Assembly: GCA_025043315.1 (NCBI GenBank)
Contig: GCA_025043315.1_4324.1
Reading direction: 5' to 3' (one strand)
DNA: 46,202 nt
DNA from: a phage
Numbering within the stretch: the stretch's first letter is position 1; every line of letters begins with the position of its first letter. Below, one piece after another: positions 3,732 to 34,023 of the stretch. The notes beneath the pieces were generated by a model that saw nothing but the letters and a program-made list of their open reading frames with translations, did no database searches and was not told the origin of the DNA. A program made the translations under genes and the position numbers.

Positions 3732-3761
3732 TTCTCAATCTCTCGTTGTGTTGATGTGGTA

Positions 3762-6099: not shown

Positions 6100-6124
6100 A
6101 TTTATTGTTTAGCAATTCGTGCTA
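6082..6124 (-). promoter_or_regulatory. palindromic promoter module (TAGCAATTCGTGCTA 6110-6124; TATGAT 6082-6087)
   Basis: 22-bp spacer; leader CCATATCAACAACGAAGAGG. Confidence 0.6.
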
Positions 6125-6499: not shown

Positions 6500-6645
6500 C
6501 TCTGAGGTATCAATAGAGCCCCAAACGCCGTTGACTGTCGATACCCGTTAGCATTGATTGCAACCCGCAGTGGCGGCAGCCCATCCTGGATAGCGATATT
6601 CATAATCTGCTCGTCCGTCAGTTTATCCTCGTTAAAGTCAAACAT
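6484..6645 (-). pseudogene. N-terminal remnant of a second copy of the 9708..11291 gene, out of frame with 6122..6499
   Basis: 53-codon ORF MFDFNEDKLTDEQIMNIAIQDGLPPLRVAINANGYRQS... matches MFDFNEDKLSVEQVMAIAAADNLPPLRVAINANGYRQS of the full-length gene; same TAATG context. Confidence 0.55.
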
Positions 6646-7124
6646 TACTTAATCTCCTCAATAATTAAACGGTAATCCTTAATGGCCTTCATGGCGGCTG
6701 CAAGCGCCTCACCTTCATACTCAGAAAGGTCTGGCATCACCTTAGAAATCTTAGCCTTGAACTCAGTGATTGCCTCATCCTTGATCGCGTTGTTGGTCTT
6801 CTTTCTAATCCCAATGTTTGCAGTTCCAGGAATCAGCTTAATAACCAGCTTCTTGTTTCCAGCTAGAGTGGTTTCACCAAACTCACTATCACCCTCATCC
6901 TCATCATAATGGTGAGTTGCCTTCAGCCCTGCATCTCTCAACTCAGGCATACGAGCCGTTGTATTGTAGATGTATGAGCTCTTAAGCTTTTGTAGACCAC
7001 CCTCCTCGGCGCCAATAAGGCTCTCAATCTTGTTGAGTGTCACGCTGATCTGCTTATCCTCAGAATTAAGCGCTGCTTTTACCATCTCACGAATCACTTG
7101 GCCTAATGTTACCTTCTTGTTCAT
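6645..7124 (-). CDS. hypothetical protein, first gene of the leftward early operon
   Basis: 159 aa ORF with GAGAGGAG SD and canonical sigma70 promoter upstream. Confidence 0.6.
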   Translation of the reverse strand: MNKKVTLGQVIREMVKAALNSEDKQISVTLNKIESLIGAEEGGLQKLKSSYIYNTTARMPELRDAGLKATHHYDEDEGDSEFGETTLAGNKKLVIKLIPGTANIGIRKKTNNAIKDEAITEFKAKISKVMPDLSEYEGEALAAAMKAIKDYRLIIEEIK

Positions 7125-7155
7125 CTCTATAACTCCTCTCGTTTAAGTTGAATCC

Positions 7156-7184
7156 ATCATATACCGACTTACACATGTAGTCAA
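7156..7184 (-). promoter_or_regulatory. canonical sigma70-type promoter TTGACT-N17-TATGAT
   Basis: -35 at 7179-7184 and -10 at 7156-7161 on minus strand; leader AAACGAGAGGAG resembles palindromic-promoter leaders. Confidence 0.5.
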
Positions 7185-7204
7185 GTGTAATTTTTGGTAA
7201 CTTT

Positions 7205-7540
7205 TGGGGGCGTTACGCGAAATGGCACGCTAGCTAAGCTATAGCTCAATGTAGTTTCGTGTCGTGCGTGTAACGAGGTAAATTGGCTAGATGGCTCCAT
7301 AATGGCTAAATCTCACATAAAATAGCAACAATGTATTCTGATGGGAAAAAACATATAGATATCGCCGGGACCCCCGTTACACGACTTACATACAATAATA
7401 ATAATAATAATAATAATAATAGAAAGAAGATATATATATATATTAAGCACTTATAGCGTAAGTCAGGGCGTATCTGCGCGTAACTAGCGTAACGATAGGC
7501 GCTGGCTTACATCGCGCTACGTCGGTTACGCGTCAGCTCA
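7205..7540. promoter_or_regulatory. regulatory region A: GTTACG-type repeated boxes, (AAT)9 at 7394-7421, (AT)7 at 7430-7443; homologous to region 25515-25850
   Basis: shared blocks AAATGGCA, AGCTATAGCTCAATGTA, AGGGCGTAT, ACATCG-N-TCGGTTACG with region B. Confidence 0.55.
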
Positions 7541-7726
7541 AAATGGCTCAGCCAGAATAAAAATCAACTTGTATGGTAGTCAACCCAGCTTTCATTCACT
7601 AACTCCCCACTTCATTTCACTTTTCGCAACAATCAAAAACATCATTGCATCAGAAGCAATATTGCTGTATGCGCAATAATCATGTGAATCATTGCAATAT
7701 CTGCAACAATCCATAAATCTGACGAA

Positions 7727-7770
7727 TAGCACTTTTTGCTAAAGACATGTTAAGGTGGTGACGCTATAGT
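7727..7770 (+). promoter_or_regulatory. palindromic promoter module (TAGCACTTTTTGCTA 7727-7741; TATAGT 7765-7770)
   Basis: 23-bp spacer; leader TAGCTCATCAACAACGGGGAG before HNH gene. Confidence 0.55.
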
Positions 7771-7791
7771 TAGCTCATCAACAACGGGGAG

Positions 7792-8340
7792 ATGGATATG
7801 AAGATTGATAAAGATGAATTGCGTCACGAAAGCGCACTGATTGGTCGAGTTAGTGACCCTGAAATTTGGAATTCGATATTTGAATATGATGGGGAAAACC
7901 TAATAAGAAAAGCAACAACATCAAGTAGAGCGAGGGCTGGAGATGTTGTGGGGTGCCTTGATAGGGGTTACTTAACTGTCAGGTTCAATAAAAAGCTATA
8001 CTTTGTTCATAGGATCGTATGGGAAATGCATAATGGACCCATTCCTGATGGAATGTATATTGATCACATAAATCACAAGAGAGATGATAACGGATTGGTC
8101 AATTTAAGGCTTGTAACAAGAATTGAAAATCAAAGAAACATGTCAATTAGCAAAAGGAATAGTAGCGGCTTTGTTGGTGTCTCATGGAGTAAGGTGCACA
8201 ATAAGTGGGAGGTTAGAATAGGAGTGGGGAATGGCACGAAAGACATGTATTTAGGAAGATATGATGCCATTGATGAAGCAGTTGCAGTTAGAAAGAAAGC
8301 GGAGTTAGATATTGGGTATCACAAAAATCACGGAGAATAG
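7792..8340 (+). CDS. HNH homing endonuclease with AP2-like DNA-binding domain
   Basis: HNH-type motif IDHINHKRDDNGLVNLRLVTRIENQRN, then SSGFVGVSW...KWEVRI; paralog of 18683..19213. Confidence 0.75.
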   Translation: MDMKIDKDELRHESALIGRVSDPEIWNSIFEYDGENLIRKATTSSRARAGDVVGCLDRGYLTVRFNKKLYFVHRIVWEMHNGPIPDGMYIDHINHKRDDNGLVNLRLVTRIENQRNMSISKRNSSGFVGVSWSKVHNKWEVRIGVGNGTKDMYLGRYDAIDEAVAVRKKAELDIGYHKNHGE

Positions 8341-8942: not shown

Positions 8943-9104
8943 ATGCTACTACCATCTGAGATAAATTATTACGATCTTGACACCGTCGCAGCTTACAGCG
9001 GAAAGGTCTGGCCTTGCGGTGACTGGTTTCGCGAGGACTTGCTAGAAAGCCATGAAATTATGCTCAAGGCGATAGAGAAGGCAAGAAGTAGCACTAATTG
9101 CTAA
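8943..9104 (+). CDS. hypothetical small protein (53 aa)
   Basis: ORF whose TAA lies inside the palindrome at 9089-9103. Confidence 0.4.
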   Translation: MLLPSEINYYDLDTVAAYSGKVWPCGDWFREDLLESHEIMLKAIEKARSSTNC

Positions 9105-9131
9105 AGTCCTTCGGGGCTTTTCATGTATATT
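9089..9131 (+). promoter_or_regulatory. palindromic promoter module (TAGCACTAATTGCTA 9089-9103; TATATT 9126-9131)
   Basis: 22-bp spacer; leader CTCATCGAAACGAAACAACGAAGGG. Confidence 0.6.
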
Positions 9132-9707: not shown

Positions 9708-11291
9708 ATGTTTGATTTCAACGAAGATAAGCTATCTGTTGAACAGGTTATGGCAATTGCTGCCGCAGACAACCTCCCACCCCTGCGCGTGGCTATCAAT
9801 GCTAATGGATATCGCCAGTCTCAATCATTCTGGAAGGCTCCGGTCGAGATTGATGCAGCTAATGATAAGTATCCTGTAATCTCACTAGGAAATGATATTG
9901 ATGTTGTTGGCAAGCTGTCAGCCAATATTGCTCGCTCAGTTCAGTTTCCGGAGTCTTCAGCTTATATGCACTTCCTGGGGTGTATTTCCGCTGCAATGCT
10001 GGGTCGATTTACTGTTGAGTATCATGGAACTCAGCAGCCGACTTCGCTGTACGTCGTAACGAGTCAGCCACCATCGACCGGTAAATCAGCAATTAACTCA
10101 CTCTCCATTGCTCCAATGATCGCCGAGACTGAGCGACTGAACGAGGTGCGCAAGCGTGAGCGCAAAAAGATTATGGCCAAGCTATCCGCATTATCCAAAG
10201 AGATGAAACAGGAGAAATCTCCGTCAGAGATGGCTTCACTTTTTGAAGAGAAAGAGGAGTTAGAGGAAAAACTCGAGAAACTTTGTGATATCGTATTCCC
10301 GGTATCAGATACCACACCTGAAGGTCTTGCGCGAATAAACAACCGCCAGGGCAACTTTGCGGTAATTTCTGACGAAGCGACGAGTGTTAACTCACTGCTT
10401 GGCATGACCTATGGAGATGGCTCTAAGAAAACGAACAGCGAACTTGTGCTTAAAGCATGGGATGCTGGTAACGTATCTATCGCGCGTGCGAACGCAGAGA
10501 ACAACATGAGCTTCGTTGCTATGGGTTGCATATCGGTAATTGCGCAGGATGAAACAATCAATGCCATCATGAACGCTGGGGCGCGTGGCATTGGCGTATC
10601 GGAACGTTTCCTTTTGGTCCGCGAGAAGTCATTCCTGGGCGAACGTGTATTCGTTGATGAGAATGGAGACTCAACTTACGAGCCAATTGATGATGGACTA
10701 AAGGCTGATTACTTCCGCTTAGTTCATGAGATAATGAGTGAGCAAGATGTTAAGCTGACAGTAAGCAACTCAGCGATGAAATATCTCAACCGTGCTCGTC
10801 AGGAGATGGAACCTCACCTTGCTGACGGCGGAAAGTATTCGCACACAATGTTGCGCGGCGCTCTTGGTAAGTTCGATAAGCAGGCTATCAGGATTGCAGC
10901 CGTTCTTCACACAGTTCGTAACTGGTTCAACCCAAATGGCGGTAGTCCGCAAAAGTCCAGAGAGATTGATCTCGACACCATGCAAGAGGCTGTAATTATG
11001 TTCCATGAACTGAGTAAGACTTATCTGTCATCTGCAAACGCTGCTGGGCATGCTGGCGACAATGCAGAGATGAATAAGCTGATTGATATTCTGATTAAGC
11101 AAGGTAAGAGCGGTAAAGGTGTTGTTGGTATTCGTTCCCTGTACGAAGCTGCTCGCAAGGTTAAGCCATTCGAGGCTCAGGCGGGAGTGATGACGAAGAT
11201 TAAAGATCACTTGCTGCCAATGCTTGATGAGAAAAACTACACGTGCCTGATTGGTGATAAAGTTTACATTAATCCACGACTATTGGGGTGA
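9708..11291 (+). CDS. P-loop NTPase replication protein (primase/helicase-associated), C-terminal domain duplicated at 6122..6499
   Basis: Walker A-like SQPPSTGKSA and Walker B-like FAVISDE; 527 aa. Confidence 0.6.
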   Translation: MFDFNEDKLSVEQVMAIAAADNLPPLRVAINANGYRQSQSFWKAPVEIDAANDKYPVISLGNDIDVVGKLSANIARSVQFPESSAYMHFLGCISAAMLGRFTVEYHGTQQPTSLYVVTSQPPSTGKSAINSLSIAPMIAETERLNEVRKRERKKIMAKLSALSKEMKQEKSPSEMASLFEEKEELEEKLEKLCDIVFPVSDTTPEGLARINNRQGNFAVISDEATSVNSLLGMTYGDGSKKTNSELVLKAWDAGNVSIARANAENNMSFVAMGCISVIAQDETINAIMNAGARGIGVSERFLLVREKSFLGERVFVDENGDSTYEPIDDGLKADYFRLVHEIMSEQDVKLTVSNSAMKYLNRARQEMEPHLADGGKYSHTMLRGALGKFDKQAIRIAAVLHTVRNWFNPNGGSPQKSREIDLDTMQEAVIMFHELSKTYLSSANAAGHAGDNAEMNKLIDILIKQGKSGKGVVGIRSLYEAARKVKPFEAQAGVMTKIKDHLLPMLDEKNYTCLIGDKVYINPRLLG

Positions 11292-13017: not shown

Positions 13018-13058
13018 TTTTGTGTTTCCTCGTTTAGTTCATCTCGTTTCGATGTGGT

Positions 13059-13102
13059 GATTATGCCGCATTTCTACGGCATGGGTTAGGCAAAGAGTGC
13101 TA
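13059..13102 (-). promoter_or_regulatory. palindromic promoter module, degenerate (TAGGCAAAGAGTGCTA 13087-13102; ATAATC 13059-13064)
   Basis: 22-bp spacer; leader CACCACATCGAAACGAGATG. Confidence 0.45.
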
Positions 13103-14233
13103 TTAACTAAACATTTCGGGACGGCAAGTGAATCGGCCAATCTCACCAAACTTAGGGCTATAGATTATCACTGAAGCCTGTCGGTATGATCGATACCCTC
13201 CATTGGCGCTGTACGCATCCTTACAACCAAGTTGTCCATGAGACTCATCAATGCCTAAGTTACCCTCTGTAATCGTTTGATGGTGGTAATGGCCCGAGTG
13301 AGTGTAAACATACTCAGATTCACCAAAGGCCTTGCGATGATCGCGAGCCAGGGTGGACAGTCGAGTGTCAGGTTTTTTGAGTTCATGTCCATGACAGTAA
13401 CCAAGCAGGGTCTTTCCAAACTGTGTTACGTGAAGCGCCGCAGGAGATGCATCAACATTAACTCGAGGCTCATCCATATAGAACGCCGCCATTGCAGCGC
13501 GAAGCCAAATCATACCTGAGAGGTCGTGGTTGCCAGGGATAATCTGCACCTCAACCTCGGCGTGCTTATCAAGCATCCGACTAATTGCTCGGCGGGTAGC
13601 TCGCACCGCTACGTAAACAAGCTTGTGATAACGGCTATCTTGATCAAGAATATGACGACTCGTTGGAGTTACCGCTTCCATTCCGTCAGAGTGAAGGAAG
13701 TCTCCACCAATCAGCAATACAGCTTTCTTTGAGTTAGGGGCTTTTGCTACCGCGTAATCAAAGTAATCATTAAGGATTCTCTCAGCAATTTCAGTACTGT
13801 AGTTCTCACCACATTCAGCGTGGTGAGCCATGGCGCCAATGTGAAGGTCGAACACTGGGTAAAGGCTCAATGTGTCCTCAAATAATGATACTCTGAGCGC
13901 CTTAGGTTTCTCACGTGGCAACTCATCAGTTAGGGCTTGAATTACCTGAAGCATCATTTCTTCTTGCTTCTCTTTGTCAATGTCAGACTTAACCCACTGT
14001 TGCTTAATCTCACCATCCGCACCAATAAGGCTAGAAACACCCTTAACAGCGTAACCCTGCGGAATCAGATTGCTAACATCACGACCGTGACCTTCACCCA
14101 TCTTAGCCAATTTACTGCGACGCAATTCAACGTTGCGAATGTTCATTCCGTACTTCTCTGCGATTGCTTTGTTAGTCATGCCGTTAGCGAGCTCTTCGCG
14201 CAATTGTTCGTTGGTAATTTTTGCAGTTGCCAT
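13103..14233 (-). CDS. metallophosphoesterase (calcineurin-like) with N-terminal HTH-like segment
   Basis: motifs DLHIG, GGDFLHSD, GNHD, GHELKK; N-terminal GMTNKAIAEKYGMNIRNVELRRSKL. Confidence 0.65.
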   Translation of the reverse strand: MATAKITNEQLREELANGMTNKAIAEKYGMNIRNVELRRSKLAKMGEGHGRDVSNLIPQGYAVKGVSSLIGADGEIKQQWVKSDIDKEKQEEMMLQVIQALTDELPREKPKALRVSLFEDTLSLYPVFDLHIGAMAHHAECGENYSTEIAERILNDYFDYAVAKAPNSKKAVLLIGGDFLHSDGMEAVTPTSRHILDQDSRYHKLVYVAVRATRRAISRMLDKHAEVEVQIIPGNHDLSGMIWLRAAMAAFYMDEPRVNVDASPAALHVTQFGKTLLGYCHGHELKKPDTRLSTLARDHRKAFGESEYVYTHSGHYHHQTITEGNLGIDESHGQLGCKDAYSANGGYRSYRQASVIIYSPKFGEIGRFTCRPEMFS

Positions 14234-15355: not shown

Positions 15356-15606
15356 TATTCTAATACCTCGTCAAATTTTTCGCCAAATTCGTTTTTAACA
15401 GTTTCTAAGTCATCTTTGTATGTCGGGCTAACTTCAAATGCGTAAGACTTATCATCAACATCAATCAGTATATATCCAACGCTTGTTGTTATTGCCAGTT
15501 CATACATATAACCAGTCTTGCGTGATTCGTAGAATTTTCCAGTGTAGATAGTAGCCATTTTGTTTCTCTCTCTGTGTTTCGTTTCGATGGAGTAACTATA
15601 CCCCAC
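15355..15606 (-). CDS. hypothetical acidic protein
   Basis: 83 aa ORF downstream of promoter module. Confidence 0.5.
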   Translation of the reverse strand: MGYSYSIETKHRERNKMATIYTGKFYESRKTGYMYELAITTSVGYILIDVDDKSYAFEVSPTYKDDLETVKNEFGEKFDEVLE

Positions 15607-15637
15607 CTTTTAAAATCGTCTTTAGCAATTAGTGCTA
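15595..15637 (-). promoter_or_regulatory. palindromic promoter module (TAGCAATTAGTGCTA 15623-15637; TATAGT 15595-15600)
   Basis: 22-bp spacer; leader TACTCCATCGAAACGAAACACAGAGAG. Confidence 0.6.
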
Positions 15638-16054
15638 TTTTGAAATCATTTCTTTGAATGCTGCAATAAAACCCTCGCGACCATAGGCCACAGCCGCGAA
15701 ACCTCCTGATTCTCTCACGCTTTTAAGGAAAGACTTCTGTTCGTTACTGACTGGACTAGCTTGTGTTTTTCCAGCTCTCTTTAGCTCTATGGCTCCAAAA
15801 GGGTACTTACCACGCAGAGATTCAGGTATCAGAAACAAGCAATCTGATACGCCCTTAAGCAATCCTTTAGCCTGGTCCTTTCTTGCCTGACCGATGCTCT
15901 TCATCGATTCATTAACCGTGTGCCAATAAACAATCTGCGGGTAGTTATACTTAACCCAATCAGAGCAAAAGATTTGTTCGTCATCCTCCTTTGGGCATGA
16001 TTTAACGGGGCCAGGGTAAAACTCAATGTAATCTTCTTTATCTGTTATGTTCAT
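15635..16054 (-). CDS. VRR-NUC domain nuclease
   Basis: PD-(D/E)XK-like GVSDCLFLIP...GAIELKRAGKTQASPVSNEQKSFL; adjacent to SF2 helicase. Confidence 0.65.
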   Translation of the reverse strand: MNITDKEDYIEFYPGPVKSCPKEDDEQIFCSDWVKYNYPQIVYWHTVNESMKSIGQARKDQAKGLLKGVSDCLFLIPESLRGKYPFGAIELKRAGKTQASPVSNEQKSFLKSVRESGGFAAVAYGREGFIAAFKEMISK

Positions 16055-18146: not shown

Positions 18147-18632
18147 ATGAATGCAGTCGACAAGCGAACCATTAACGGTAATAACGGAACCATCCGCACT
18201 GAAGACAAAAAACAACGGAAACGACCTTCAGGTTACTACGTTTTGAAAGATGAGGTAAGGGCGGGTTTACGTGCGCGGCTGGAAATTGTTCTTGATTTCT
18301 TCGGCACAAAGGCAAATATGGCAAAGCAATTAAAGGTAACACCACAGGCTGTAGAGGAATGGTTTAAGCGCGGTATGATTTCTGCGCGCGGGGCTCAACT
18401 CTCACACAACTACTACAAGCGAACAGGGGAAGGCTTTCGCGCCACATTCTGCCGACCAGATCTGCAATTCGACGGAAACGGCAAGCCTCTTACTCTACGT
18501 TGCAAAAAGCGTCACATGCTGCGTGTTGTTACTGAGGCTGAATTAGCCACCAAGCCAGAGTGTCGATCATGGCGCAAGATTAAGGAAGAGAATCGCAAAA
18601 AGCGAGAAGCAGAGACAAATAGCACGAATTGA
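18147..18632 (+). CDS. HTH DNA-binding protein (Cro/YdaS-like), candidate regulator
   Basis: HTH-like TKANMAKQLKVTPQAVEEWFKRGMIS; basic N-terminus. Confidence 0.5.
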   Translation: MNAVDKRTINGNNGTIRTEDKKQRKRPSGYYVLKDEVRAGLRARLEIVLDFFGTKANMAKQLKVTPQAVEEWFKRGMISARGAQLSHNYYKRTGEGFRATFCRPDLQFDGNGKPLTLRCKKRHMLRVVTEAELATKPECRSWRKIKEENRKKREAETNSTN

Positions 18633-18662
18633 TAAACAATGGCGCTATGCATTGTGTATAGT
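18620..18662 (+). promoter_or_regulatory. palindromic promoter module (TAGCACGAATTGATA 18620-18634; TATAGT 18657-18662)
   Basis: 22-bp spacer; palindrome overlaps stop of upstream gene. Confidence 0.55.
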
Positions 18663-18682: not shown

Positions 18683-19213
18683 GTGTATATGAAAGTTAAT
18701 GATTTTGTTTATGTTGACGATGAATTTAAATTAAGATGGAAGAGTAGAGGTGTTGAATTCTTCAAAACAGAGAGGTCATCAAAGATCTGGAATAGTAGGT
18801 TTGCAAACAAGGAATGTGGATACATTAGGGATGACGGCTATCTTTCTTTTGAGTTCAATGGTCGAGCATACAGAAATCACAGGGTGATATGGGAAATTGT
18901 AACTGGTAATGAAATAGATGATAACATGGAGATTGACCATATAGATCATAATACAACAAACAACAATATTGAAAACCTTAGACTTGTTGACAGGAAAGAG
19001 AATTGCAAAAACCAATCCATGATGCCCCATAACTCGAGTGGCTTCACAGGTGTTCACTGGTGGTCAGCAAGAAACAAATGGAGAGCCCGCATCGAATGTG
19101 ATGGCAGAGTGAAAACAAAAACATTTGAAGACTTTAATGACGCTGTCGAGTGGAGAAAAGAAATGAACATAAATCTTGGCTTTCACAAGAATCATGGAGA
19201 TAAGAAAAAATGA
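18683..19213 (+). CDS. HNH homing endonuclease with AP2-like domain (second copy)
   Basis: IDHIDHNTTNNNIENLRLVDRKENCKN, SSGFTGVHW...KWRARI. Confidence 0.75.
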   Translation: MYMKVNDFVYVDDEFKLRWKSRGVEFFKTERSSKIWNSRFANKECGYIRDDGYLSFEFNGRAYRNHRVIWEIVTGNEIDDNMEIDHIDHNTTNNNIENLRLVDRKENCKNQSMMPHNSSGFTGVHWWSARNKWRARIECDGRVKTKTFEDFNDAVEWRKEMNINLGFHKNHGDKKK

Positions 19214-20133
19214 AATTTTATGATAAGAAAGAGGTATTGCCAAGAATGATGGGGATGTGGAAGGATGCCCTCATAAACATTTGTGATGCGCCTGAGAGCT
19301 TCTTTAATGGCAAGCACCAGCCATGCCTATATTGTGGAGGTCGGGATCGGGCTAGATGGACTGATAACCTATCTATAAAAGGTGACGGCGGAAATATATG
19401 CAATCAGTGCGGAAACGACACTGGAATAGGGTTGATGATGAGGCTTACTGGAATGAACTACAGTGAGGCCATAAATGTATTAGGTGACTGGCTCAACCTT
19501 ATACCTGCAGAGGTTATATCAAAAGCAAACAAAAGAGCATCTCGTACATCACCATACAAAATGGGCGCCCAGATTGATCACGAAAGATGCTTAGAGATAA
19601 TGGAAAGGACGGAAAGAGTAGAATCAACTCCGCTCAGTACATATGAGGGTATCTATAGCGAGTTTGGTTTTGATGTTGGCAGGACGAAATCAGGCGAATT
19701 AATACACGCAGTACCGTGCTTTATGGCTTATAATGATGGCATATCAGATGATATGTGCAATGTGATGTTTATCAATGAAGAGGGAGATGTTAGTTATGCT
19801 GCAAAAGATTATACTCGCCAGTCTGTGGCTGTTATTGGTTCCTTTAAGGATGATGAGTACGCTTACCTGGTCGATAATTGGGTTGATGGTGTTCGCGTTC
19901 ATCTTGCTACTGGCAACCGCAGCGTGCTTGTTTGCCACTCCAGCTACAACATGGAAATGGTTGCTTATGCGCTTAAAAAATACAAGTTACGCGTCGCTTG
20001 TACTATCCACGATTTTGATTTACTTGCCGTTGCTGACGATCGCAATCTTGATGTTGTAATGCCAAATGATGATAATTTTTTCAAGTCAGGAATAAGAAAG
20101 AGAATATACAAGGCAAGCGAATTACTAAACTAA
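19210..20133 (+). CDS. putative DNA primase with N-terminal zinc ribbon
   Basis: C-x2-C...C-x2-C (CLYCGG...CNQCGN); replication-module position. Confidence 0.5.
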   Translation: MKFYDKKEVLPRMMGMWKDALINICDAPESFFNGKHQPCLYCGGRDRARWTDNLSIKGDGGNICNQCGNDTGIGLMMRLTGMNYSEAINVLGDWLNLIPAEVISKANKRASRTSPYKMGAQIDHERCLEIMERTERVESTPLSTYEGIYSEFGFDVGRTKSGELIHAVPCFMAYNDGISDDMCNVMFINEEGDVSYAAKDYTRQSVAVIGSFKDDEYAYLVDNWVDGVRVHLATGNRSVLVCHSSYNMEMVAYALKKYKLRVACTIHDFDLLAVADDRNLDVVMPNDDNFFKSGIRKRIYKASELLN

Positions 20134-20156: not shown

Positions 20157-20181
20157 GCATTAAAGATGATACAATCCACTT

Positions 20182-20196
20182 TAGCAATTCGTGCTA
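20182..20196. promoter_or_regulatory. palindrome TAGCAATTCGTGCTA without the usual -10/leader, upstream of tail fibre gene
   Basis: exact palindrome core; no TATAAT-like hexamer at the 22-bp position on either strand. Confidence 0.4.
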
Positions 20197-20221
20197 AACA
20201 ACAATATAGGAATTGATTATT

Positions 20222-22579
20222 ATGGCAATTTATGACTTAGGAACCGCATCGCTAGCCGCGAATGGCGAAGTGACTGGCGTAGGAACAACATGGAAGGCAC
20301 CACTTACACTGATCAGAGTTGGTGCAACCATCGTATTTAAAACTGAACCAGTACAGATTTACACCATCTCAGAAATCATCAGCGATACGCGGATTAATGT
20401 TTACAACCCTAATTCTGAAACTGTTCCTGCTGGCACTGGTTACGCGATTCTTGCGCACGACGGGATTACCGTCCAGGGTTTAGCTCAGGATGTTGCCGAA
20501 ACTTTGCGCTACTATCAGTCAAAAGAGACCTCAATTGAGTCATTAATTGAAATAATTGAAAACTCAGATATTGATGTTATTGATGGCAAAATTCAGGAAA
20601 TGCAGCAAATTCTAAGTAGCACAATGGCAGCCGAAGGATCAGCAAAATCCAGTAGTGATAGCGCTCTTGAATACAGTAATAAATCAATAAGCAGCGCTAA
20701 TGAGTCAAAGTCTGCAAGGGATGAGGCTGTAGCCGCTAAGAATTCGACAATTGAAGCGATTAATAACGCAGGAGATGCAGGTACACTAGTGACATTATCT
20801 GGTTCTAATGGGGCATCACTTATTGGAACCACTGATGGTTCAACCATTCAGGACGAGATTTCGAGTCTTAAAGCCAATGGGGCTTCAATTATTCGAACCA
20901 CTGATGGTTCAACCATTCAGGACGAGATTTCGAGTCTTAAAGCCAATGGGGCTTCAATTATTCGAACCACTGATGGTTCAACCATTCAGGACGAGATTTC
21001 GAGTCTTAAAGCCAATGCTGGAAATCTTAGGGCAGAACTAGCTTCTGATAATGGATTTAATATCGTCAATTACAAGAGGCCTGGTGTTAATGGTTCTGTA
21101 ATTAATTCGCTATCTACCAGGTACGCTTACACTTTAGACGCCGTGGCTGATTTCGGAGCTGACCCAACAGGTTCAACAGATAGTTACGAAGCATTGCAGG
21201 CGTGGGCGAACGCATGTGTTGCTGGGCCATGGGCTACAGGAACTATTAACGGAATATTCAGGATCAGTAAAACACTTGAGTTCGCCAATATCGCTGGATT
21301 GACCATTATTGCTAACTGTTACATATACCCAACTTTCGAATCTGGCGATGCTGTGATTCGCTATCGCAATGGCCAGGGTCTTCGTGTTTACGGTCGCTTT
21401 GAAGCGTCAGGTCAGAATAAGATAGGTATCCGTGCGGCTCATAAGATTTACACCGATAATGATAATGGTTTTAGCTTTTCCTACCTATATGGTGCTTGCG
21501 CTAGTGATGCTCTTACTGGTTTCGAGTTTGGTGACGCGGCTTATCCTAGCGGTCTAGTTTCCGAAATGTCACTGATTGGTGGTTACTCAGTGGGGTGCCC
21601 ATGCGCGGTTCGAGCTATAGGTTCCCAGTGCTATATTAACTTGGATGGATTCGATGCTGTGTCTGGAGGGGTGGGTGATCTTAGTTCCGTTACACAATAC
21701 ACCATTCATGTAAAGGGGGCTAATGTTAAAGTTCGTGGCGGTGAGATTCAGCACAATAATAATATCTACGGAGCTAGCATTCTCGTAGAGCCTCAAACTG
21801 ATCCTCTTTTCAATAATCAGTTCGGAAGCATTGAGGTTAATGCTTGCCATGTTGAGACAGCAGCGCAGCTGTGTTTTATTGCGAATCTTGATGGTGTGGA
21901 ATCACCTAAGAGTGATTTTACTAATATTTCATTTAAAGGACTGCGTGGTTATCACTCCCAGGATAACGGACCATTTATTAGCACGCACTCAACTGCCATT
22001 GAAAGTAACTATTCTGGAACCATTAGTTGGGCTAATATGTCTGGAATGCACTGCGGAGTCACCAGAACACAGCCTAACATACAGGCTGGGAGTCTATCTA
22101 GAGTGTACTACGACGAGACATATGGTGCTGGGTTCCGTAAAGGATTACAGTCTGTATCTGGCGGTATATTGCACTTTAGTCGTAGGCCTGTATGTATAGC
22201 TCAGAACACAGGTGGACAGACTCTTACTGCAGCCACTGACAAAATAATTTGGGGGGGGCTGGTTTCAACTGACGACTCTTACCGCTGGAACGCACAGTAC
22301 AGCGGGGGTACATTTACAGTGCCAGCGGGTGGTTTAAAGGATGTTCACGTTCATGCTGTAGCAAGGATTGACACAAATGTTCAGCTTAGTATGACTGTTT
22401 TCGTAGACGGCGGCGCACAAAGTTTGGCTATACCCAGCGCGGGAGCGGCTGAGCTTAATGCATTCCTTGGTGATTTAGATGCGGGTAGAGAAATTGAGAT
22501 CAGAGCTAGTGTAAGTCCAGGTTCGGCTATTTTGAATGGAGGTTATTTTGAGAGGATGACTATTACTGCATCAAGGTAG
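20222..22579 (+). CDS. tail fibre / tailspike protein with three tandem 23-aa repeats
   Basis: 785 aa from ATG at 20222 (track 788 aa from TTG 20213); repeats GASxIxTTDGSTIQDEISSLKAN x3; C-terminal Gly/Asn-rich region suggestive of a beta-helix. Confidence 0.7.
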   Translation: MAIYDLGTASLAANGEVTGVGTTWKAPLTLIRVGATIVFKTEPVQIYTISEIISDTRINVYNPNSETVPAGTGYAILAHDGITVQGLAQDVAETLRYYQSKETSIESLIEIIENSDIDVIDGKIQEMQQILSSTMAAEGSAKSSSDSALEYSNKSISSANESKSARDEAVAAKNSTIEAINNAGDAGTLVTLSGSNGASLIGTTDGSTIQDEISSLKANGASIIRTTDGSTIQDEISSLKANGASIIRTTDGSTIQDEISSLKANAGNLRAELASDNGFNIVNYKRPGVNGSVINSLSTRYAYTLDAVADFGADPTGSTDSYEALQAWANACVAGPWATGTINGIFRISKTLEFANIAGLTIIANCYIYPTFESGDAVIRYRNGQGLRVYGRFEASGQNKIGIRAAHKIYTDNDNGFSFSYLYGACASDALTGFEFGDAAYPSGLVSEMSLIGGYSVGCPCAVRAIGSQCYINLDGFDAVSGGVGDLSSVTQYTIHVKGANVKVRGGEIQHNNNIYGASILVEPQTDPLFNNQFGSIEVNACHVETAAQLCFIANLDGVESPKSDFTNISFKGLRGYHSQDNGPFISTHSTAIESNYSGTISWANMSGMHCGVTRTQPNIQAGSLSRVYYDETYGAGFRKGLQSVSGGILHFSRRPVCIAQNTGGQTLTAATDKIIWGGLVSTDDSYRWNAQYSGGTFTVPAGGLKDVHVHAVARIDTNVQLSMTVFVDGGAQSLAIPSAGAAELNAFLGDLDAGREIEIRASVSPGSAILNGGYFERMTITASR
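20811..21017 (+). repeat. 3 x 69-bp in-frame tandem repeat inside tail fibre gene
   Basis: units 2 and 3 identical, unit 1 differs at a few positions. Confidence 0.9.
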
Positions 22580-23746: not shown

Positions 23747-23775
23747 CTTTAACCTCGTTCGTTGTTGATGGGGTA

Positions 23776-23818
23776 ATCATACCCCACCTTTTAATTTTGT
23801 ATTTAGCAATTCGTGCTA
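23776..23818 (-). promoter_or_regulatory. palindromic promoter module (TAGCAATTCGTGCTA 23804-23818; TATGAT 23776-23781)
   Basis: 22-bp spacer; leader TACCCCATCAACAACGAACGAGG. Confidence 0.6.
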
Positions 23819-23819
23819 T

Positions 23820-24785
23820 TTAGATTTCTTTGTATTGTTTTAGAGCCCAATCAGGAACTAATAGCTCTTGCTCTGTTATGCCGTTCGAGTACCCAGGCCA
23901 AATATCCAACTCCTTGCACTTCTTGTAGGTCGCCAGCGCCTCTAAATATTGAAGCCTTCCGATTCTGAGTTGCTCATCTGTCAAGGTGTACAGCATTGGT
24001 AGATATGGCTCCACCTTCTCCTGCGCAAGCAATCCTACAACAACCTTTCGCTTCTCGCTGAATGCCTTCACAAACAGATCTCTCTGAAGAGCCATTTTTG
24101 CAAGGTATCCGTGAGAGAATGCTGACTTACCAAATCCTTCCGGGCTTGCGTCAGCTGTTGTTTTATAATCTGTGATCCGAACGACTCCATCAACAACGTC
24201 AACGTGGTCAATTCGAATCTTCACTCCGACACCAAGAATCTCACCGAATATTGATAGCTCTTTTTGTGCTGTCTCACTATTCACGATTGCATTATATGCC
24301 GGTATATTGCAAAGAACCTCACGCATAGCCACAACTTTATCGTAGTCTGCTGCGCTAACTAGCTCCTTGCCCTCTACAAGAGCCTGTGCGCTCTCCTGCT
24401 GCTCAATTAGCCATTTAACATCCCAATCCTCACCGGAGCGATACATCATCTCTACGAGCTCGATATACCCCTTCCCTGACGTGCCAGCTACGCCAACTTT
24501 TTTAAGTGCTGCCGATAATCCGGCCTGGCTTGTAATTAATCCTTCAATCGCGTCAAGGTCTGTAGCTCGAAGGTATTCTTTATCAAACATGTCACCTTCG
24601 AGGATGTACGTGTGTGACAGGGTTCCAAACTTAAGCGCCTTGCTATTATTGTTGCGCTGCTTGAACTTCCACTTAGCTGGTGAACCCTGGATAATCTCGA
24701 CAAGTGAGGAGCCTGAGATGTGGTCAGTTTCAGCGTGGTAAGCCTCGTTGCTTAGCTCCTCTCTCGTAAAAACTTTAAAAGTCAT
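23820..24785 (-). CDS. putative PD-(D/E)XK recombination exonuclease
   Basis: 321 aa; nuclease-like RIDHVDVVDGVVRITDYKTT; upstream partner of Erf. Confidence 0.5.
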   Translation of the reverse strand: MTFKVFTREELSNEAYHAETDHISGSSLVEIIQGSPAKWKFKQRNNNSKALKFGTLSHTYILEGDMFDKEYLRATDLDAIEGLITSQAGLSAALKKVGVAGTSGKGYIELVEMMYRSGEDWDVKWLIEQQESAQALVEGKELVSAADYDKVVAMREVLCNIPAYNAIVNSETAQKELSIFGEILGVGVKIRIDHVDVVDGVVRITDYKTTADASPEGFGKSAFSHGYLAKMALQRDLFVKAFSEKRKVVVGLLAQEKVEPYLPMLYTLTDEQLRIGRLQYLEALATYKKCKELDIWPGYSNGITEQELLVPDWALKQYKEI

Positions 24786-25177: not shown

Positions 25178-25524
25178 TTTTGTAACCCCACGATGATTTC
25201 GATATGCTCTTTAGTTGTCTTTTCTATTCTAATTGATTTATTTTTCCAGTCTTCACCATATGATGACTCGCATAATTTAAGAGCTATTTCGTAAGTTAAC
25301 CCAATAAAAACCGGAGCATAGCTAGGTAGTATTACGGTGTGAGCTGAGTATCTATCTATTTTCTTTCCCATTTTCGTATCTCTTTGGTTGTTTGCTTTCG
25401 ATGAGGTAACTATATATTCGCAAGTGCAGCCAGTCCAATTGGTTTCGCCAATCGTTGATTCAAACTTACGCGTGAATATTTGTAATTCCGTGTAGGCATT
25501 GCCACTTGTTACGTAAAATGGCAT
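25174..25524 (-). CDS. hypothetical protein (start uncertain)
   Basis: 116 aa ORF whose ATG lies inside conserved regulatory region B. Confidence 0.4.
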   Translation of the reverse strand: MPFYVTSGNAYTELQIFTRKFESTIGETNWTGCTCEYIVTSSKANNQRDTKMGKKIDRYSAHTVILPSYAPVFIGLTYEIALKLCESSYGEDWKNKSIRIEKTTKEHIEIIVGLQK

Positions 25525-25850
25525 CTAAGCCCAGCTATAGCTCAATGTAACCGGCGTGTATATCGTGTATATCATTTATTGCTGATGGTGTATTGGTATA
25601 GCTGCCGCACAATACTGTATAAATCCACATGATATTAAAATTATAACCGGAACACTCTATAGAAGTAGTTACATGATATACACAGTAATATATATAATAA
25701 TAATAATAAGAGTAAAATGTTGATATATATAGATATTTTAATGTAACTAATGCGTAAATTGGCGTAACAGGGCGTATATCATTTTCCGCGGATGAGATTG
25801 TATACATCGAGTTACATCGGTTACGTGTAACTGTGATTTGTGGTGAATTT
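25515..25850. promoter_or_regulatory. regulatory region B, diverged homolog of region A, with short (TA)n/(AAT)n tracts
   Basis: shared blocks with 7205-7540; GTTACG boxes; AT-rich simple repeats at 25680-25730. Confidence 0.5.
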
Positions 25851-25859
25851 GGCGATAAA

Positions 25860-25902
25860 TAGCACTAATTGCTAAAGGAATCTGACTGTCTTTAGGTATA
25901 TT
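25860..25902 (+). promoter_or_regulatory. palindromic promoter module (TAGCACTAATTGCTA 25860-25874; TATATT 25897-25902)
   Basis: 22-bp spacer. Confidence 0.55.
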
Positions 25903-26004
25903 TATGCGCATGGCGGCAATGGTGTCGTCATACAACCTGAATTTCAGGCTTAACATCAAATCATGACCCAAATTTGGGTCATGAAAAACAGAAGAGAGAT
26001 TAAA

Positions 26005-26244
26005 ATGAACTTAGCCTTACTTAATGAAGATGTAAAAATGAATAGTTATGATTTTTTGAATAATGTTGTCAACCCAGCCAGAGAGGTGGCAGGAGAGTCA
26101 AAGCTGCGTCACAACTGGTTTCTTGAAAAAATTGTGGATGAGATTGGTGCTGAAAATTTGTGCTACCGAAAATCGGTAGCGCAAAATACGAGCAACCAAA
26201 TGGCAAGGAGTCAGAAAATTGATACTGTAGATTTAAACATGTAG
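26005..26244 (+). CDS. N-terminal part of a Rha-like regulatory protein, ends at in-frame TAG
   Basis: AREVAGESKLRHNWFLEKIVDEI resembles the Rha-domain core as I recall it; start chosen at third ATG with AGAGAGATTAAA leader. Confidence 0.4.
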   Translation: MNLALLNEDVKMNSYDFLNNVVNPAREVAGESKLRHNWFLEKIVDEIGAENLCYRKSVAQNTSNQMARSQKIDTVDLNM

Positions 26245-26247: not shown

Positions 26248-26673
26248 ATGCTTCTTGTTGGAATGCGTGAGTCAAAGGCAGTTCGCCTAGCGGTTCTTGA
26301 TAAGCTTAAGCAGATGCAGGCCACCATTAAAAAACAAGCAGAAGTAATCAGCCAGATGGTAAGTATTGATGAACTAAAAGAGGCGAGAATGATGCTTGGT
26401 GTAGCTAATGCGCAGAATGCACATCTTAGCCAGCGCATTGTTGCAGAGCAAAGAATAAATGAGATCTTACTCATGGATAAGAATACCGATGAAAAGCTCG
26501 ACATGCTGGCTTGTGAGGCTCGCCAGTGCTGGGTTAGCCGCTCTGATGAGATGGAGGAAAGATTTAAGTATGAAGTGCAATGCTTCGCTCTTAAAGAAAA
26601 GACGGACGCACTGACCGGATTAATTGAGAATGAGCTAGGTATTGATATTAAGCTGTTGCTCGAAAAGAAATAG
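26248..26673 (+). CDS. C-terminal part of the same Rha-like reading frame (141 aa), in frame with 26005..26244 across TAG-CAA
   Basis: same frame as upstream ORF, separated only by TAG at 26242-26244 plus CAA. Confidence 0.45.
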
Positions 26674-26713
26674 CACTAATTGCTAAACACTGGTCGCAAG
26701 GATGCGATACTAT
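26671..26713 (+). promoter_or_regulatory. palindromic promoter module (TAGCACTAATTGCTA 26671-26685; TACTAT 26708-26713)
   Basis: 22-bp spacer; leader TACTCCATCGAAACGAAACGAAC. Confidence 0.6.
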
Positions 26714-27992: not shown

Positions 27993-30900
27993 TTACCACA
28001 CTCCAACTACCACTCTTCCTCCGTTCGGTAAGTTTACAGTGATTCCGTTATTGTTAATCTGGACCGTGTTATTAATTCCGTTAAATGCGAAGTTACCATT
28101 ATTGGCATACAGGTTACCCCTTACAGTGGCGTTATTAAATTCCGCACTTCCTGACTTGTCAATCGCCCATCCTTGAGAGCCAGCAACGTAGTTGTTAGAT
28201 TGAATCCTGTTACCAATCTTCGCGTTAGTAATTGAGCCATCGCCAATTACCGCGCTTTGGATGATTACGTTTCCGTTCTCTACAACGAAGGGGAGTTGCC
28301 ACTGACCGGAACCAGAACCAATGCCGTTACTGATTGCGAATCTGTTTGCGTCAAAAATGAACTGACTGCGAACGTTTCCACCAGTGCCAACTAGCTCCAT
28401 GCTCATGCCGGATGAATAAGTCTGACCATTGTATTTCAGGCCAAGGCTAATTCCGTACTGCACGCCAGTTGATGTGGCATTAGAGAATGCGTCTAACTTC
28501 TGGTTTAGAGCCGCCTCGTTTTCGCCAAGTCTTGCTGATAGAGCCGTGTCTGCAGTAGTTCTTGCTTCTGTCTCTGTGGCTAATGCAGTCTGAACTTCTG
28601 TAATCGACGATACAACTTCATCATCTATCTGTGCTTTAAGGGCTGTTAGAGCCTCTACGCGCGCCTGAGTTTCATCTGCTATGAGATTAACTGCCTGAAC
28701 ATATTCAGCCTTACGTTTGCCATTCTCCTTTGTCATTCTGCGAACATCGCCATCATTAGCCAATGCGTTCTCGATAATTGCCTCGGCTTGATTCTGAATG
28801 TCCTGGTTTTTCTCAATTGCATTCTGCTCGAGATATTTGAATCCTTCAGAACCCTCGATATCAACCTTGATGTAATCATTGATGATGTTGGCGTCGTCAG
28901 TACTCATGCCCCTAGCGAAATAAGACCAATCAGAGGTATTGCCAATTCTGTCAATCAATCTTGCACGATACCAAATGACCTTGCCTGGTTGAATCGGCGC
29001 GTGCCAGTATTCATAGGCTGGATAAGGCAGTAACGTCAGCAAACTTGCGTTATCAGGATTATAAGTACCGTCACCATTATCAGGAACCTGCTGAAGTTCA
29101 GTGTAAGCAGTATCACCAGATCCTTCAGGAAATCCCCATTTAACACGGATGCCAAATACTTCATCAGTTGATGCAGTGATAACTGTAGGCGCAGATGGGC
29201 GGCCAATCTTACCAGTTAGCGATACAGTTACAATGTCAGACCAGGCAGACACGTTTTCAGTATCTGATACGCTGCGAACCCTAACGTCATAGATTCCTGC
29301 GTAAATACCTTCGATATCAACCTCTGTGCTAGCTGTTCTGGGTACGTTAATCCAGTTGCCATTCTCTTTTCTCCACTGAACATTGTAGGTTTTTGCGTAT
29401 GGAGCTTTATCCCATCCGATAACCATCGTCTCAACTGATAAGCCTTGAACAACCTTACTGTAGCTTGACACTGTTAAATTCTCAGGCGGCGACAATCTGT
29501 CAGGCTCTACGATTGAAGTCGGACGATCAACAATGTTAACGCCGTAGTCAATCTCGTCATACTTGTTAGGGTCATACTCTACTGCGGTAATTGTATACTG
29601 GAATGAGTCCGAGCCGTCGGAATCCGCTTTTTGAATCCCGGTCACAACATACTGCTGAAGCGCCAGATTATCCTTATCGATTGCGAATACAGTATCAGGC
29701 TGAGCTACAAAGCTGAAAGCTGTGTTCAGGTTAATCGTCCTACCATCATCAGATACGCTTGCAATGGTTCTTGCCTCCGGACTTCCGTCAGGCTTGTTCA
29801 GAAGAATTCTGTCACCAGGCTCTGCGTCAACTTTAAACGGGGTAAAAACCTGCAATCCCTGAACTGATTCAATACGACCGGAAAGGTTTAACTGATAGTT
29901 GCTGGACCATGCCGCGTCATTGACCGCAATAACCTCACCAATCATCGGAATCATACCTTCCAACCCGGTAGTGAAGCTGATAGTTTCGCTTCTTAGGTTG
30001 GTTTTCAGGAGCCATCTTCCGCGTCTGTTTGCTTCACTTCTGCGAGTACATCCAATCGCAGTTAAATCTACAGGGTTAAATCCAAAACGACGAGTTGCCT
30101 CCAGCTCGAATACTGTCTCAACATCCTGCTGATAGTTGTTCTCCACATCATCAAACTGAACGTTTGCGGTAGTGTAAAGACTTTTATCACTGGCAAATGT
30201 GCGGCTGAATAATCCATTAACGACGTTATCATTCGTGAAGATGTAAGATGGATTACGAGGTTTGTCGACAACAATACCAATCTTTTCGCCATCGTAGAAA
30301 GTTAAGCCACGGAAGATTGAGCAGATATCACGAATTAGTGTGTAGGCCTCAACTTTATTCTGGACAACCATGTCGCATAGATATCGCGGCTCCATACCAC
30401 CCTTACCATCTGGAACCATCTGGTCACAGAATTGCGCGGCTTCATACAGGCCCCACTTATCAATCTCTACACCCAACTCTCGCTGATCAAGACCGTAGCG
30501 GCGGTTTGTCACTAAGTCATAAAGAACCCACGCAGGGTTATTTGACCATGCCATTTTAAATAGACCATTCCATGTGCCACTATAAGTTCTGCTTTCAGGG
30601 TCATAGTTTGTAGGAACCTGAATCAACTTCCATCGCTTCTTGATAGAGATTGTCGGGATACCGTTAGGAAAAAGGTCAGAGCCAAACTCAACGTAAACAA
30701 GAGCCGTAAGCGGATAGCGGAATTTAGCGTCGATTACTTCCTGATAGGTTGTAATCTGCATCCCGTTTACCAGCGTGCTACTTGTCGAATCTGGCGTAAT
30801 CTTACGGATACGAACCAGGGCGCTATCAAATTCAGCCGGAAGGTTTACACGAATGCTGCGGTCGTAACCTGTAGTTGTCTTCCCGTTAGCAACTCCTCGA

Positions 30901-33195: not shown

Positions 33196-33223
33196 TTTTA
33201 ACTCCTCTCGTTTGTGTAAAGTA

Positions 33224-33266
33224 ATCATACTCCATCCGTGGCGACTTCGTTTAGCAATTCGTGCTA
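33224..33266 (-). promoter_or_regulatory. palindromic promoter module (TAGCAATTCGTGCTA 33252-33266; TATGAT 33224-33229)
   Basis: about 55 bp near-identical to the copy at 3762-3804. Confidence 0.6.
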
Positions 33267-33267
33267 T

Positions 33268-34023
33268 TTAGTTCTGATTCGCTTTGGACTGAAGGCTAGC
33301 CGCAGCGCATCCACCAAATGAAAGCTGATTATTCTCTCCAAATCTAAGCTTGCAACTGTTAACAGTTCCTGCGCAGAAGTCTAATGATGGATCGCTTACC
33401 GGTTTATCATCCTTGTCAAAATAACGATTACCAGCATAATCACAGCCATTACCGCTACGATACCAGCCCCTAGAAGCCCAGTAGCAAACAGACTGAACAA
33501 GTCTCGCAGGAATATAGATACCATCCATATCCATAGGGCTACTTAGCTCGAATGACGCCGTCTTGTAATCAACCTGCTTCGGTCGCTCAATGAAGTAAAC
33601 AAATCTGCGATAGTCACCATCAGCAATGCTCCCGTCTTCATTGATGTTATCTCGCGTAGTAATCCAGATGGTAACCTTAGCTTTAACAAGTCCGTTGTAT
33701 GTGCGAATCAATGCGCTGATACGCTGGTCTACGTTTGATACTGTTAGCGTCACTTTGTTGGCTTTGCCGTCAGAGGTCATATTGATACCCGAGATACCGA
33801 AAGGTCTTGGTCCATACTCTTCTCCGCGAAATGTAATCGTCTTCTCTGGTAGTGGCTCGCCATTCATCTGGGCCAGCATAATCTCTTCTGGTGTGTATGA
33901 AATGTTCTCATTGTGGAAGTTGTAAACGAGACTTCCAAAGGAGGTTCCGTCAACCTGGATTAGTGTCACAATCTCGCCAGGGAAAAGGCTTTGCAGCTGA
34001 TTTTCAAACTTTGGACTTAACAT
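33268..34023 (-). CDS. minor tail protein, lambda L-like
   Basis: start moved to ATG 34021-34023 (track TTG 34035); position between M and K. Confidence 0.75.
   Translation of the reverse strand: MLSPKFENQLQSLFPGEIVTLIQVDGTSFGSLVYNFHNENISYTPEEIMLAQMNGEPLPEKTITFRGEEYGPRPFGISGINMTSDGKANKVTLTVSNVDQRISALIRTYNGLVKAKVTIWITTRDNINEDGSIADGDYRRFVYFIERPKQVDYKTASFELSSPMDMDGIYIPARLVQSVCYWASRGWYRSGNGCDYAGNRYFDKDDKPVSDPSLDFCAGTVNSCKLRFGENNQLSFGGCAAASLQSKANQN

Follow-up and report, generated by a model that had tools for sequence, protein, structure and literature searches.

We analysed a phage DNA of 46,202 nucleotides (nt; NCBI GenBank assembly GCA_025043315.1, contig GCA_025043315.1_4324.1, hereafter the window) and found that one of its intergenic regions, region B, is a diverged direct copy of part of another, region A, located 18.3 kb away in the same orientation. 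The duplicated unit, which we call the module, is kept as a pair in six phage genera. Based on its sequence, we propose that the two modules are origins of replication composed of iterons and an unwinding element, or one origin and its cis-acting partner, a reading to which we assign a probability of roughly 45%.

The window represents an essentially complete genome of an Rtp-like coliphage (Drexlerviridae, Braunvirinae). Across most of its length, it is 85-89% identical to Veterinaerplatzvirus and Rtp-type records, and it runs collinear to phage Rtp, in the opposite orientation. Region A (7125-7791) lies between a leftward early operon, the first gene of which is DUF7174/rtp1-like, and a rightward arm of small genes and the helicase. 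Region B separates a leftward rtp46-exoVIII-erf-ssb operon from rightward genes coding for an anti-repressor, a cor-lipoprotein and a membrane protein. The gene maps bear out the placement of both copies at divergent junctions, as proposed in an initial annotation of this sequence. That annotation had also described them as bracketing replication and recombination genes, and the 18.3-kb arc does contain genes for helicases, primase, SSB, Erf and exonuclease VIII, together with lysis genes.

Extent and anatomy of the duplicated module

Six words had been annotated as common to regions A and B in the same order and orientation. All six were found in both regions, with order and orientation kept, at the following positions:

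AAATGGCA, A 7220, B 25516
TAAGC, A 7235, B 25526
AGCTATAGCTCAATGTA (17-mer), A 7237, B 25533
AGGGCGTAT (9-mer), A 7465, B 25769
ACATCG, A 7509, B 25804 and 25814
TCGGTTACG (9-mer), A 7522, B 25817

For the 17-mer and the two 9-mers, A and B are the sole sites on the plus strand of the whole window. When A and B are aligned locally (Smith-Waterman), the score is 69; 300 shuffles that preserve dinucleotides give 23.0 +/- 3.0 (z = 15.4). Masking of the (AAT)n/(TA)n runs lowers it to 47 (shuffles 20.9 +/- 2.5, z = 10.4), still far above chance. All other 481-nt windows of the genome score 29 or less against A. In nhmmer searches, the core of B as a query retrieved that of A with an E value of 2e-10 (2.4e-7 in the reciprocal search), and a family profile of the core identified exactly two copies in the window, at 7376-7533 and 25668-25829.

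The copy exists as first annotated, but its bounds differ. The B unit extends from 25508 to approximately 25830 instead of starting at 25515, only 7212-7535 of the 7141-7790 span attributed to A is shared, and the (TA)n/(AAT)n tract reported in B at 25680-25730 is present at 25687-25737. Two elements that had been grouped with these regions lie outside the duplication. The palindromic module at 25860-25902 corresponds to a 21-nt repeat of Drexlerviridae followed by a promoter-like segment, and the pac-like repeats form a separate element found beside A only. The features of the two modules are as follows:

7212-7535, plus strand: module A, with left block 7212-7254, core 7376-7533 and AT tract 7394-7444
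Starts at 7456, 7468, 7478 and 7487, plus strand: the four GCGTA iterons of A, 9-12 bp apart
25508-25830, plus strand: whole module B, a duplicated non-coding unit made of a left block, a variable linker of ~105 nt and a core
25508-25550, plus strand: left block of B, GTTACG-N-GGCA-N-CCAGCTATAGCTCAATGTAAC
25668-25829, plus strand: core of B, 162 nt, the best-conserved part, used for the nhmmer profile
25687-25737, plus strand: AT tract of B, (AAT)4 ... (TA)n, a candidate DNA unwinding element
25713-25725, minus strand: consensus for integration host factor (IHF), within the AT tract of B
25752-25777, plus strand: three GCGTA(A/T) iterons of B, starting at 25752, 25762 and 25772, in 10-bp phase
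25803-25832, plus strand: right end of B, with two TACATCG repeats and then the GTTACGTGTAAC palindrome

The two modules are of equal length, about 320 nt each (~323), with an identical order of blocks. In the left block, an inverted GTTAC/GTAAC pair surrounds the 10-bp palindrome AGCTATAGCT. Many phages conserve this block in both of their copies, at a fixed distance of 104-122 nt from the core, and the sequence of the intervening linker is poorly conserved. We built a consensus of the core from 17 distinct B copies and 19 distinct A copies. In order, it comprises GTTACA-GATATACA and an (AAT) run, ATAATAATAATAAT, conserved at 90% or more at each position in the B copies and representing the majority sequence in the A copies. 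The spacer that follows is TAAAAGGTTGATA in most Braunvirinae copies, with the IHF consensus on the opposite strand; in the centre of B, this consensus is kept in Braunvirinae but not in Rogunavirinae. Next come a (TA)n/TATATAGATAT run and TGTAAC, inverted relative to the initial GTTACA. They are followed by three GCGTA(A/T) repeats, 10-11 bp apart in B, or four in the A copy of the window. The columns of the three B iterons are conserved in both copies throughout the Rtp-like and Rogue-like phages. After the iterons come TTTCCGCGGAT and TGTATACATCGAGTTACATCGGTTACG(Y)GTAAC.

We considered other types of features for this segment. No long open reading frame (ORF) is common to the two module copies. 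An ATG in the left block of B at 25524, which opens a 116-aa ORF, is missing from A and from the Nouzillyvirus B copies, and since it is not conserved in Nouzillyvirus the left block was treated as non-coding. A structured non-coding RNA was ruled out, as no Rfam match was found in the modules (the sole one of the window is a tRNA) and the B core displays no significant fold relative to shuffles (z = -0.33). Promoter-like sites inside the module are limited to 9-of-12 matches, all in the AT tract and not above shuffles (6 vs 4.5 +/- 2.2 in B, 5 vs 3.0 +/- 1.6 in A). As the credible promoters are outside, the module was rejected as a sigma-70 promoter region. GATC sites or clusters are absent from the module.

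The left block also has a bearing on gene annotation. The promoter and 5' leader to the left of module B and a start at ~25371 are in line with Rogue1 and ACG-M12, in which the rtp46-like gene is annotated with 65 aa. In Rtp (NC_007603.1), the ORF annotated as rtp46 (28260-28658) crosses the conserved left block of module B (28273-28334). Its start codon is probably annotated too far upstream, the 65-aa gene of the relatives beginning downstream of the promoter.

Conservation and duplex stability

As in the window, the two-copy module is found in Rtp, T1, Rogue1, Tlsvirus CF1 and Klebsiella Webervirus GH-K3. Its sites are constant, one copy being beside pac and the other upstream of the exoVIII-erf-ssb operon. 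In self-comparisons of five genomes, the A/B pair ranked first or close to first among the non-tandem repeats, with the following matches:

Rtp: 170-292 vs 28043-28165, 83% over 123 nt
T1: 220-309 vs 30016-30095, 76% over 91 nt
Rogue1: 204-271 vs 26603-26670, 82% over 68 nt
GH-K3: 15388-15517 vs 49298-49170, 86% over 130 nt

With the core profile, the window, Rtp and Rogue1 each gave exactly two copies, and about 135 phage records match each region. A related exoVIII is present in roughly 1,700 phage records. Outside phages, no module homologues were found in PLSDB plasmids or in 5,426 Escherichia coli genomes. We looked for inversion or deletion variants, and all the related genomes examined retain both copies. 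An inverted and relocated exoVIII operon is found in GH-K3, and module B has moved along with it, its polarity relative to the operon unchanged. The suggestion that the copies serve as recombination substrates is not supported: A and B share no exact match longer than 17 nt, essential genes would be lost in a deletion, no relative has such a variant, and the B copy of GH-K3 was inverted together with the operon, not by exchange between A and B. Productive recombination between the copies is thus not supported by these sequences.

Among 11 phages, the B cores have a mean identity of 88% (minimum 77%), as compared with protein identities of 61% for exoVIII, 52% for Erf and 57% for SSB between the window and Rogue1. 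The genes beside B vary among phages, with Rha, KilA/anti-repressor, cor, or none. That the B core is so similar despite these divergent proteins and swapped flanking genes indicates selection on the DNA itself. In dozens of relatives, similarity breaks off at the edges of the B core, with matches that stop at 25829 or begin at 25657, which shows repeated exchange of the flanks. The A copies are more mosaic (mean A-A identity 64%). In the 11 phages, which belong to the Rtp/Rogue group, A is no more similar to the B copy of its own genome than to foreign ones (permutation p = 0.13), and concerted evolution within this group was thus not retained. Between genera, A and B change jointly, as the A-B score within GH-K3 is 172, and those of GH-K3 against other genera are 44 or less.

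Such exchange of flanks and the mosaic nature of the A copies could also be accounted for if the module had no function of its own, as a relic of an intergenic duplication or a linker kept as a crossover point between co-infecting phages. We regard this as highly improbable. A neutral relic would not stay 77-94% identical beside proteins at 50-60% identity, nor would six genera have kept it in two copies whose sequences change in a coordinated way. It would also not be expected to lie at both stability minima in all genomes tested.

These minima were determined with nearest-neighbour energies in 60-bp windows along the whole genomes of the window, Rtp, T1, Rogue1 and GH-K3. In all five, the AT tracts of A and B are the two least stable windows, at -53 to -59 kcal/mol, ahead of the third-ranked window at -63 to -67; the genome means range from -81 to -86 (sd about 5). 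In the window, the A tract is the least stable (-53.9 kcal/mol) and the B tract the second (-55.3), for a genome mean of -81.1 (sd 4.8). Tlsvirus CF1 has the same two minima within its loci.

The modules are also enriched in short repeats that differ between genera. The main repeat is GTAAC/GCGTAA in Rtp, Rogue1 and T1, GTAAGAT in GH-K3 and of the GAACA type in CF1, and a CGTAA-like core persists in all these genera. GTAAC is present 14 times in the two modules of the window, tenfold more than expected (1.4, p = 4e-10). Similarly, 14 of the 24 genome copies of GTAAGA in GH-K3 are in the two gaps (p = 4e-22), and the T1 modules contain nine copies of GTTACA for 0.3 expected.

Proposed paired origins and competing explanations

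For T1-like phages, the origin and iterons have been reported as not found (PMC7718038, PMC11447400), and we found no description of the module in the literature on iterons, origins and transcript maps of these phages. The standard signature by which an iteron origin may be recognized includes phased short repeats, inverted repeats around an unwinding-prone tract, a replicon-specific sequence and strong conservation. The modules harbour phased short repeats, based on the GCGTA phasing, the GTAAC enrichment and the conserved columns, and an adjacent AT-rich tract of low stability is found in five whole genomes. Because phased repeats, an unwinding-prone tract and conservation are combined with a helicase and a primase of the phage's own, and because SPP1 offers a precedent, we favour paired origins, or one origin with a cis-acting partner. 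Of the three readings initially put forward, namely a duplicated control region, paired origins or recombination substrates, this one best fits the anatomy, with its iterons, the two least stable tracts and family-wide conservation. The first remains a live rival, since each copy is upstream of a sigma-70-type early promoter.

If the modules are origins, the (AAT)n/(TA)n tract would be the unwinding element. An initiator would bind the flanking repeats, i.e. the inverted GTTACA/TGTAAC, the GCGTA repeats on one helical face, and GTAAC and TACATCG. Once bound, it would melt this tract and load onto it the DUF3987 helicase and the primase that the phage encodes. Two origins, or an origin and a cis-acting partner, would thus be present, one beside pac and the early operons and the other upstream of the recombination operon. 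We infer initiator binding, melting and replication initiation at the modules from their sequences. The genes considered alongside this reading are the following:

9708-11291, plus strand: DUF3987 (superfamily 6 (SF6), MCM-like) helicase, homologue of T1 gp09/Rtp67 (Pfam E = 1.4e-41; phrog_2373)
19210-20133, plus strand: DNA primase with a Zn-ribbon of the primase-helicase type, homologue of T1 gp24/Rtp51
6122-6645, minus strand: paralogue of the helicase gene with an internal deletion, situated in the early operon that adjoins module A on its left

The DUF3987 protein is a candidate initiator or replicative helicase. Proteins of this family are 5'-3' SF6 helicases, linked with primases in the replication modules of mobile elements, and they have a C-terminal winged helix (PMC11724360, PMC4889955). 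Searches for similar solved structures returned no significant match for the DUF3987 helicase. Its N- and C-terminal parts diverge faster than its core, and its C-terminus also matches phrog_7327, a family of unknown function. The T1 and Rtp primases are annotated as similar to P4-type alpha primases. The paralogue combines the N-terminal ~42 aa (MFDFNEDKL...) and the C-terminal ~75 aa of the helicase and is devoid of the ATPase core; its C-terminal part is 64% identical to helicase residues 454-525. In the window, it is broken into two ORFs, 6469-6645 and 6122-6499, by the loss of one nucleotide from a T run near 6524. It is complete in phage DTL (140 aa), reduced to its first 14-18 codons in Rtp (where they are annotated as rtp2) and Rogue1, and missing from T1, CF1 and GH-K3. 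A link between this paralogue and the modules is speculative. One might imagine that the MCM-like helicase, through its terminal domains or a partner, recognizes GTAAC/GCGTA at two origins of the same design and opens the AT tract, that the invariant trinucleotide register of this tract (ATAATAATAATAAT) guides binding to single-stranded DNA as in bacterial DnaA-trios, and that the headless paralogue beside origin A tunes firing in some lineages. As a whole, we consider this scenario unlikely.

Among the closest known arrangements is that of the Bacillus phage SPP1, in which two similar regions of one genome, oriL and oriR, are bound by the same phage initiator. Like the module pair, they are separate regions in the genome of a virulent pac-type siphophage, and the initiator-binding repeats (AB boxes) adjoin an AT-rich unwinding element (PMC5737612). 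In contrast with the modules, known here from sequence alone, binding of G38P and the function of oriL were shown experimentally. There is no sequence similarity between the SPP1 regions and the modules. Moreover, oriL is inside the initiator gene, whereas both T1-like copies are intergenic, and SPP1 replicates with the DnaB-type G40P and a loader instead of a DUF3987 SF6 helicase and a separate primase.

The satellite phage P4 has two cis regions, ori and crr, located a few kb apart with the same short iteron, and both are needed for replication driven by the phage primase-helicase. The P4 alpha protein combines primase, helicase and origin-binding domains, whereas in T1-like phages the primase is a protein of its own and the helicase belongs to another superfamily. 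To our knowledge, crr is devoid of an unwinding tract, unlike the two T1-like copies. Among the repeats of the B module of Citrobacter phage CF1 (10300-10760), TGTTCAC/GTGAACA resemble TGTTCACC, which we take to be the P4 type I iteron; this may be coincidence. The modules also share with lambda-type and plasmid iteron origins, such as ori-lambda and those of Staphylococcus aureus pathogenicity islands (SaPI), phased short repeats beside or around an easily melted AT-rich tract, which iterons flank in the SaPI ori, and an element specific to its own replicon. However, these origins are found in one copy per replicon, as opposed to two in T1-like phages. The module repeats are shorter (cores of 5-7 nt) and of several kinds, and the module initiator is putative.

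A number of observations weigh against paired origins. No DnaA boxes with up to one mismatch were found in region A or B, and GC and AT skews follow the direction of transcription, with no replication signal. When the window is compared with CF1 or GH-K3, in which the repeats differ, the DUF3987 helicase is the best-conserved protein, and no phage protein has a divergence that tracks repeat type across genera. Conversely, T1 retains the GTAAC/GCGTAA repeats though its helicase is the most divergent, and no protein of the window is meaningfully closer to T1 than to CF1 or GH-K3. Repeats around an AT-rich tract are likewise a feature of promoter and operator regions, and each module is upstream of a sigma-70-type promoter (7184-7156 and 25437-25409). 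Finally, the polarity of the module relative to its operon is kept even in the inverted arrangement of GH-K3, which a transcriptional role would predict as well. The promoters and the gene next to the first of them are as follows:

7156-7184, minus strand: leftward sigma-70-like promoter, TTGACT-17-TATGAT, of the DUF7174 (rtp1-like) early operon
6645-7124, minus strand: DUF7174/rtp1-like gene, heading the leftward early operon left of region A
25409-25437, minus strand: leftward sigma-70-like promoter, TGGACT-17-TATAGT, of the rtp46-like gene and the exoVIII-erf-ssb operon

Both promoters are directed away from the module. Genome-wide, only 10 sites match the consensus at 10 or more of 12 positions; the promoter of A is one of them, and its -35 hexamer is 28 nt from the left block. 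The module might be an upstream control array, with operator or enhancer sites common to the two early promoters of the rtp1/DUF7174 and exoVIII-erf-ssb operons. A phage or host regulator, possibly with an IHF-type bend, would activate early transcription or later shut it off. Each copy directly precedes a sigma-70-like promoter devoid of the 21-nt repeat, and in CF1 similarly TTGACT-17-TATAAT precedes the exonuclease gene. The polarity kept in GH-K3, the IHF consensus in the conserved centre of B, and the helical phasing of the repeats, which is also typical of cooperative binding by repressors or activators, are consistent with such a role. Nevertheless, the distance between module and promoter varies, from 28 nt in A to about 70 nt in B as measured from the left block to the -35 element, and the AT tract is 190-290 nt upstream, too distant for an UP element. 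In addition, a 320-nt composite with the two extreme melting minima of the genome exceeds the needs of known phage operators, the GH-K3 module is located between a terminator and a separate promoter bearing the 21-nt repeat, and no regulator gene is consistently found beside the module. We consider such a transcriptional role, the main rival of paired origins, as possible, if doubtful. Origins might also have a dual role and be activated by the neighbouring early transcription.

Flanking elements, neighbouring genes and implications

The elements that adjoin the modules without being part of the duplication are the following:

7620-7715: pac-like cluster of GCAACAATC, ATCATTGCA and GCAATA repeats, beside A only
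7726-7746: 21-nt repeat beside A, the counterpart of that at 25857-25877
25857-25877, plus strand: 21-nt Drexlerviridae repeat AAATAGCACTAATTGCTAAAG, with a -10-like TATATT ~20 nt on, in the rightward promoter region of the anti-repressor gene

Position 1 of the GenBank records of T1, Rtp and Rogue1 is in each case in the homologous pac-like cluster, and that of T1 is the start of the annotated 2.8-kb terminal repeat. As these records begin in the cluster, 7620-7715 was taken as the pac region; the record starts map to this cluster and not to the shared module, and nothing comparable is found beside B. Module A is only 85-180 nt away from it and is therefore inside the T1 terminal repeat, B is tied to the exoVIII-erf-ssb operon in every genus examined, and the SU57 paper gives several possible PhageTerm ends and discusses multiple pac sites (PMC7718038). 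With these data in mind, the pair might function in packaging or recombination, as a second pac-type entry for terminase, or as sites of breakage and strand invasion that start recombination-dependent replication and the formation of concatemers. This appears very unlikely. The GATTGTTGC/GCAATGATT repeats that mark pac are absent from B, no part of the module resembles a known terminase recognition site, and a single pac site is described for T1-like phages (PMC7718038, PMC11447400).

The 21-nt repeat (aaATAGCACnnnTTGnTAAAA) resembles the module in being a family-wide, non-coding repeat, and it adjoins both modules. Unlike the module, it is present in more than 13 copies per genome, oriented with transcription, and it is outside the A/B similarity. 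The form ATAGCAC-N3-TTGNTAAA, upstream of a gene in the direction of transcription, is found at 25857-25877 and not in the A/B module, and more than 13 similar copies elsewhere in the window each precede a gene (families D1/D5/D12). The inverted repeats I12, I21 and I22 are at this element. It has been reported, without a known function, for TLS, T1, Rtp and Rogue1 (PMC11447400). Written as (A)AATAGCAC-N3-TTGCTAAA, the repeat is found upstream of many genes, with sites at 3759-3808, 5357-5406, 6079-6128, 9080-9106, 13057-13106, 15592-15641, 18611-18637, 20170-20196, 23773-23822, 26662-26688, 33221-33270 and others. Approximately 20-22 nt downstream is a TATAAT/TATAGT-like hexamer, with a conserved leader (GTTAC-TCCATCGAAACGAAAC). 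Because the spacing is too long for TTGCTA to be a normal -35 element, the sequences suggest that the promoters with this repeat are activator-dependent.

Several neighbouring genes have features of their own. To the right of module B, the gene of the anti-repressor/KilA type looks split into two plus-strand ORFs, 25963-26244 (93 aa, matching positions 1-55 of phrog_8235) and 26248-26673 (141 aa, positions 79-219). A hairpin with a 10-bp stem (25961-25984) spans its first start codon. Two genes code for HNH_3 homing endonucleases, both on the plus strand. One (7792-8340) is directly right of region A, its AP2 domain match being weak and below threshold, and the other (18683-19213) is inserted between a Cro-like regulator gene (18147-18632) and the primase gene. 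In Rtp, Rogue1, T1 and CF1, the best matches of both proteins reach only 37-46% identity, and GH-K3 has none, as expected of mobile insertions. The tail fibre/spike gene (788 aa, ORF 20213-22579) contains three tandem 69-nt repeats on the plus strand (20807-21017), 96-100% identical to one another. In the related phage OzMSK, internal repeats are reported to give variability in a predicted tail-spike gene (PMC13035648). Lastly, a tRNA-Arg gene with a TCT anticodon is found in the early arm (2729-2805, minus strand), as in the relatives.

T1 is a classic coliphage and a notorious contaminant in laboratories and fermentations. A family-wide, precisely bounded pair of candidate origins makes the question of the T1-like origin directly testable. 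If the paired-origin reading is true, the modules would be the first origin for a phage using a DUF3987 (SF6, MCM-like) helicase, and T1-like phages would become the second well-defined case of a virulent siphophage with two similar origins, after SPP1. The module would also correct the annotated start of rtp46-type genes that run into it. It also represents a sharp, highly conserved DNA marker of this phage group, which could be used in detection or CRISPR-based decontamination.

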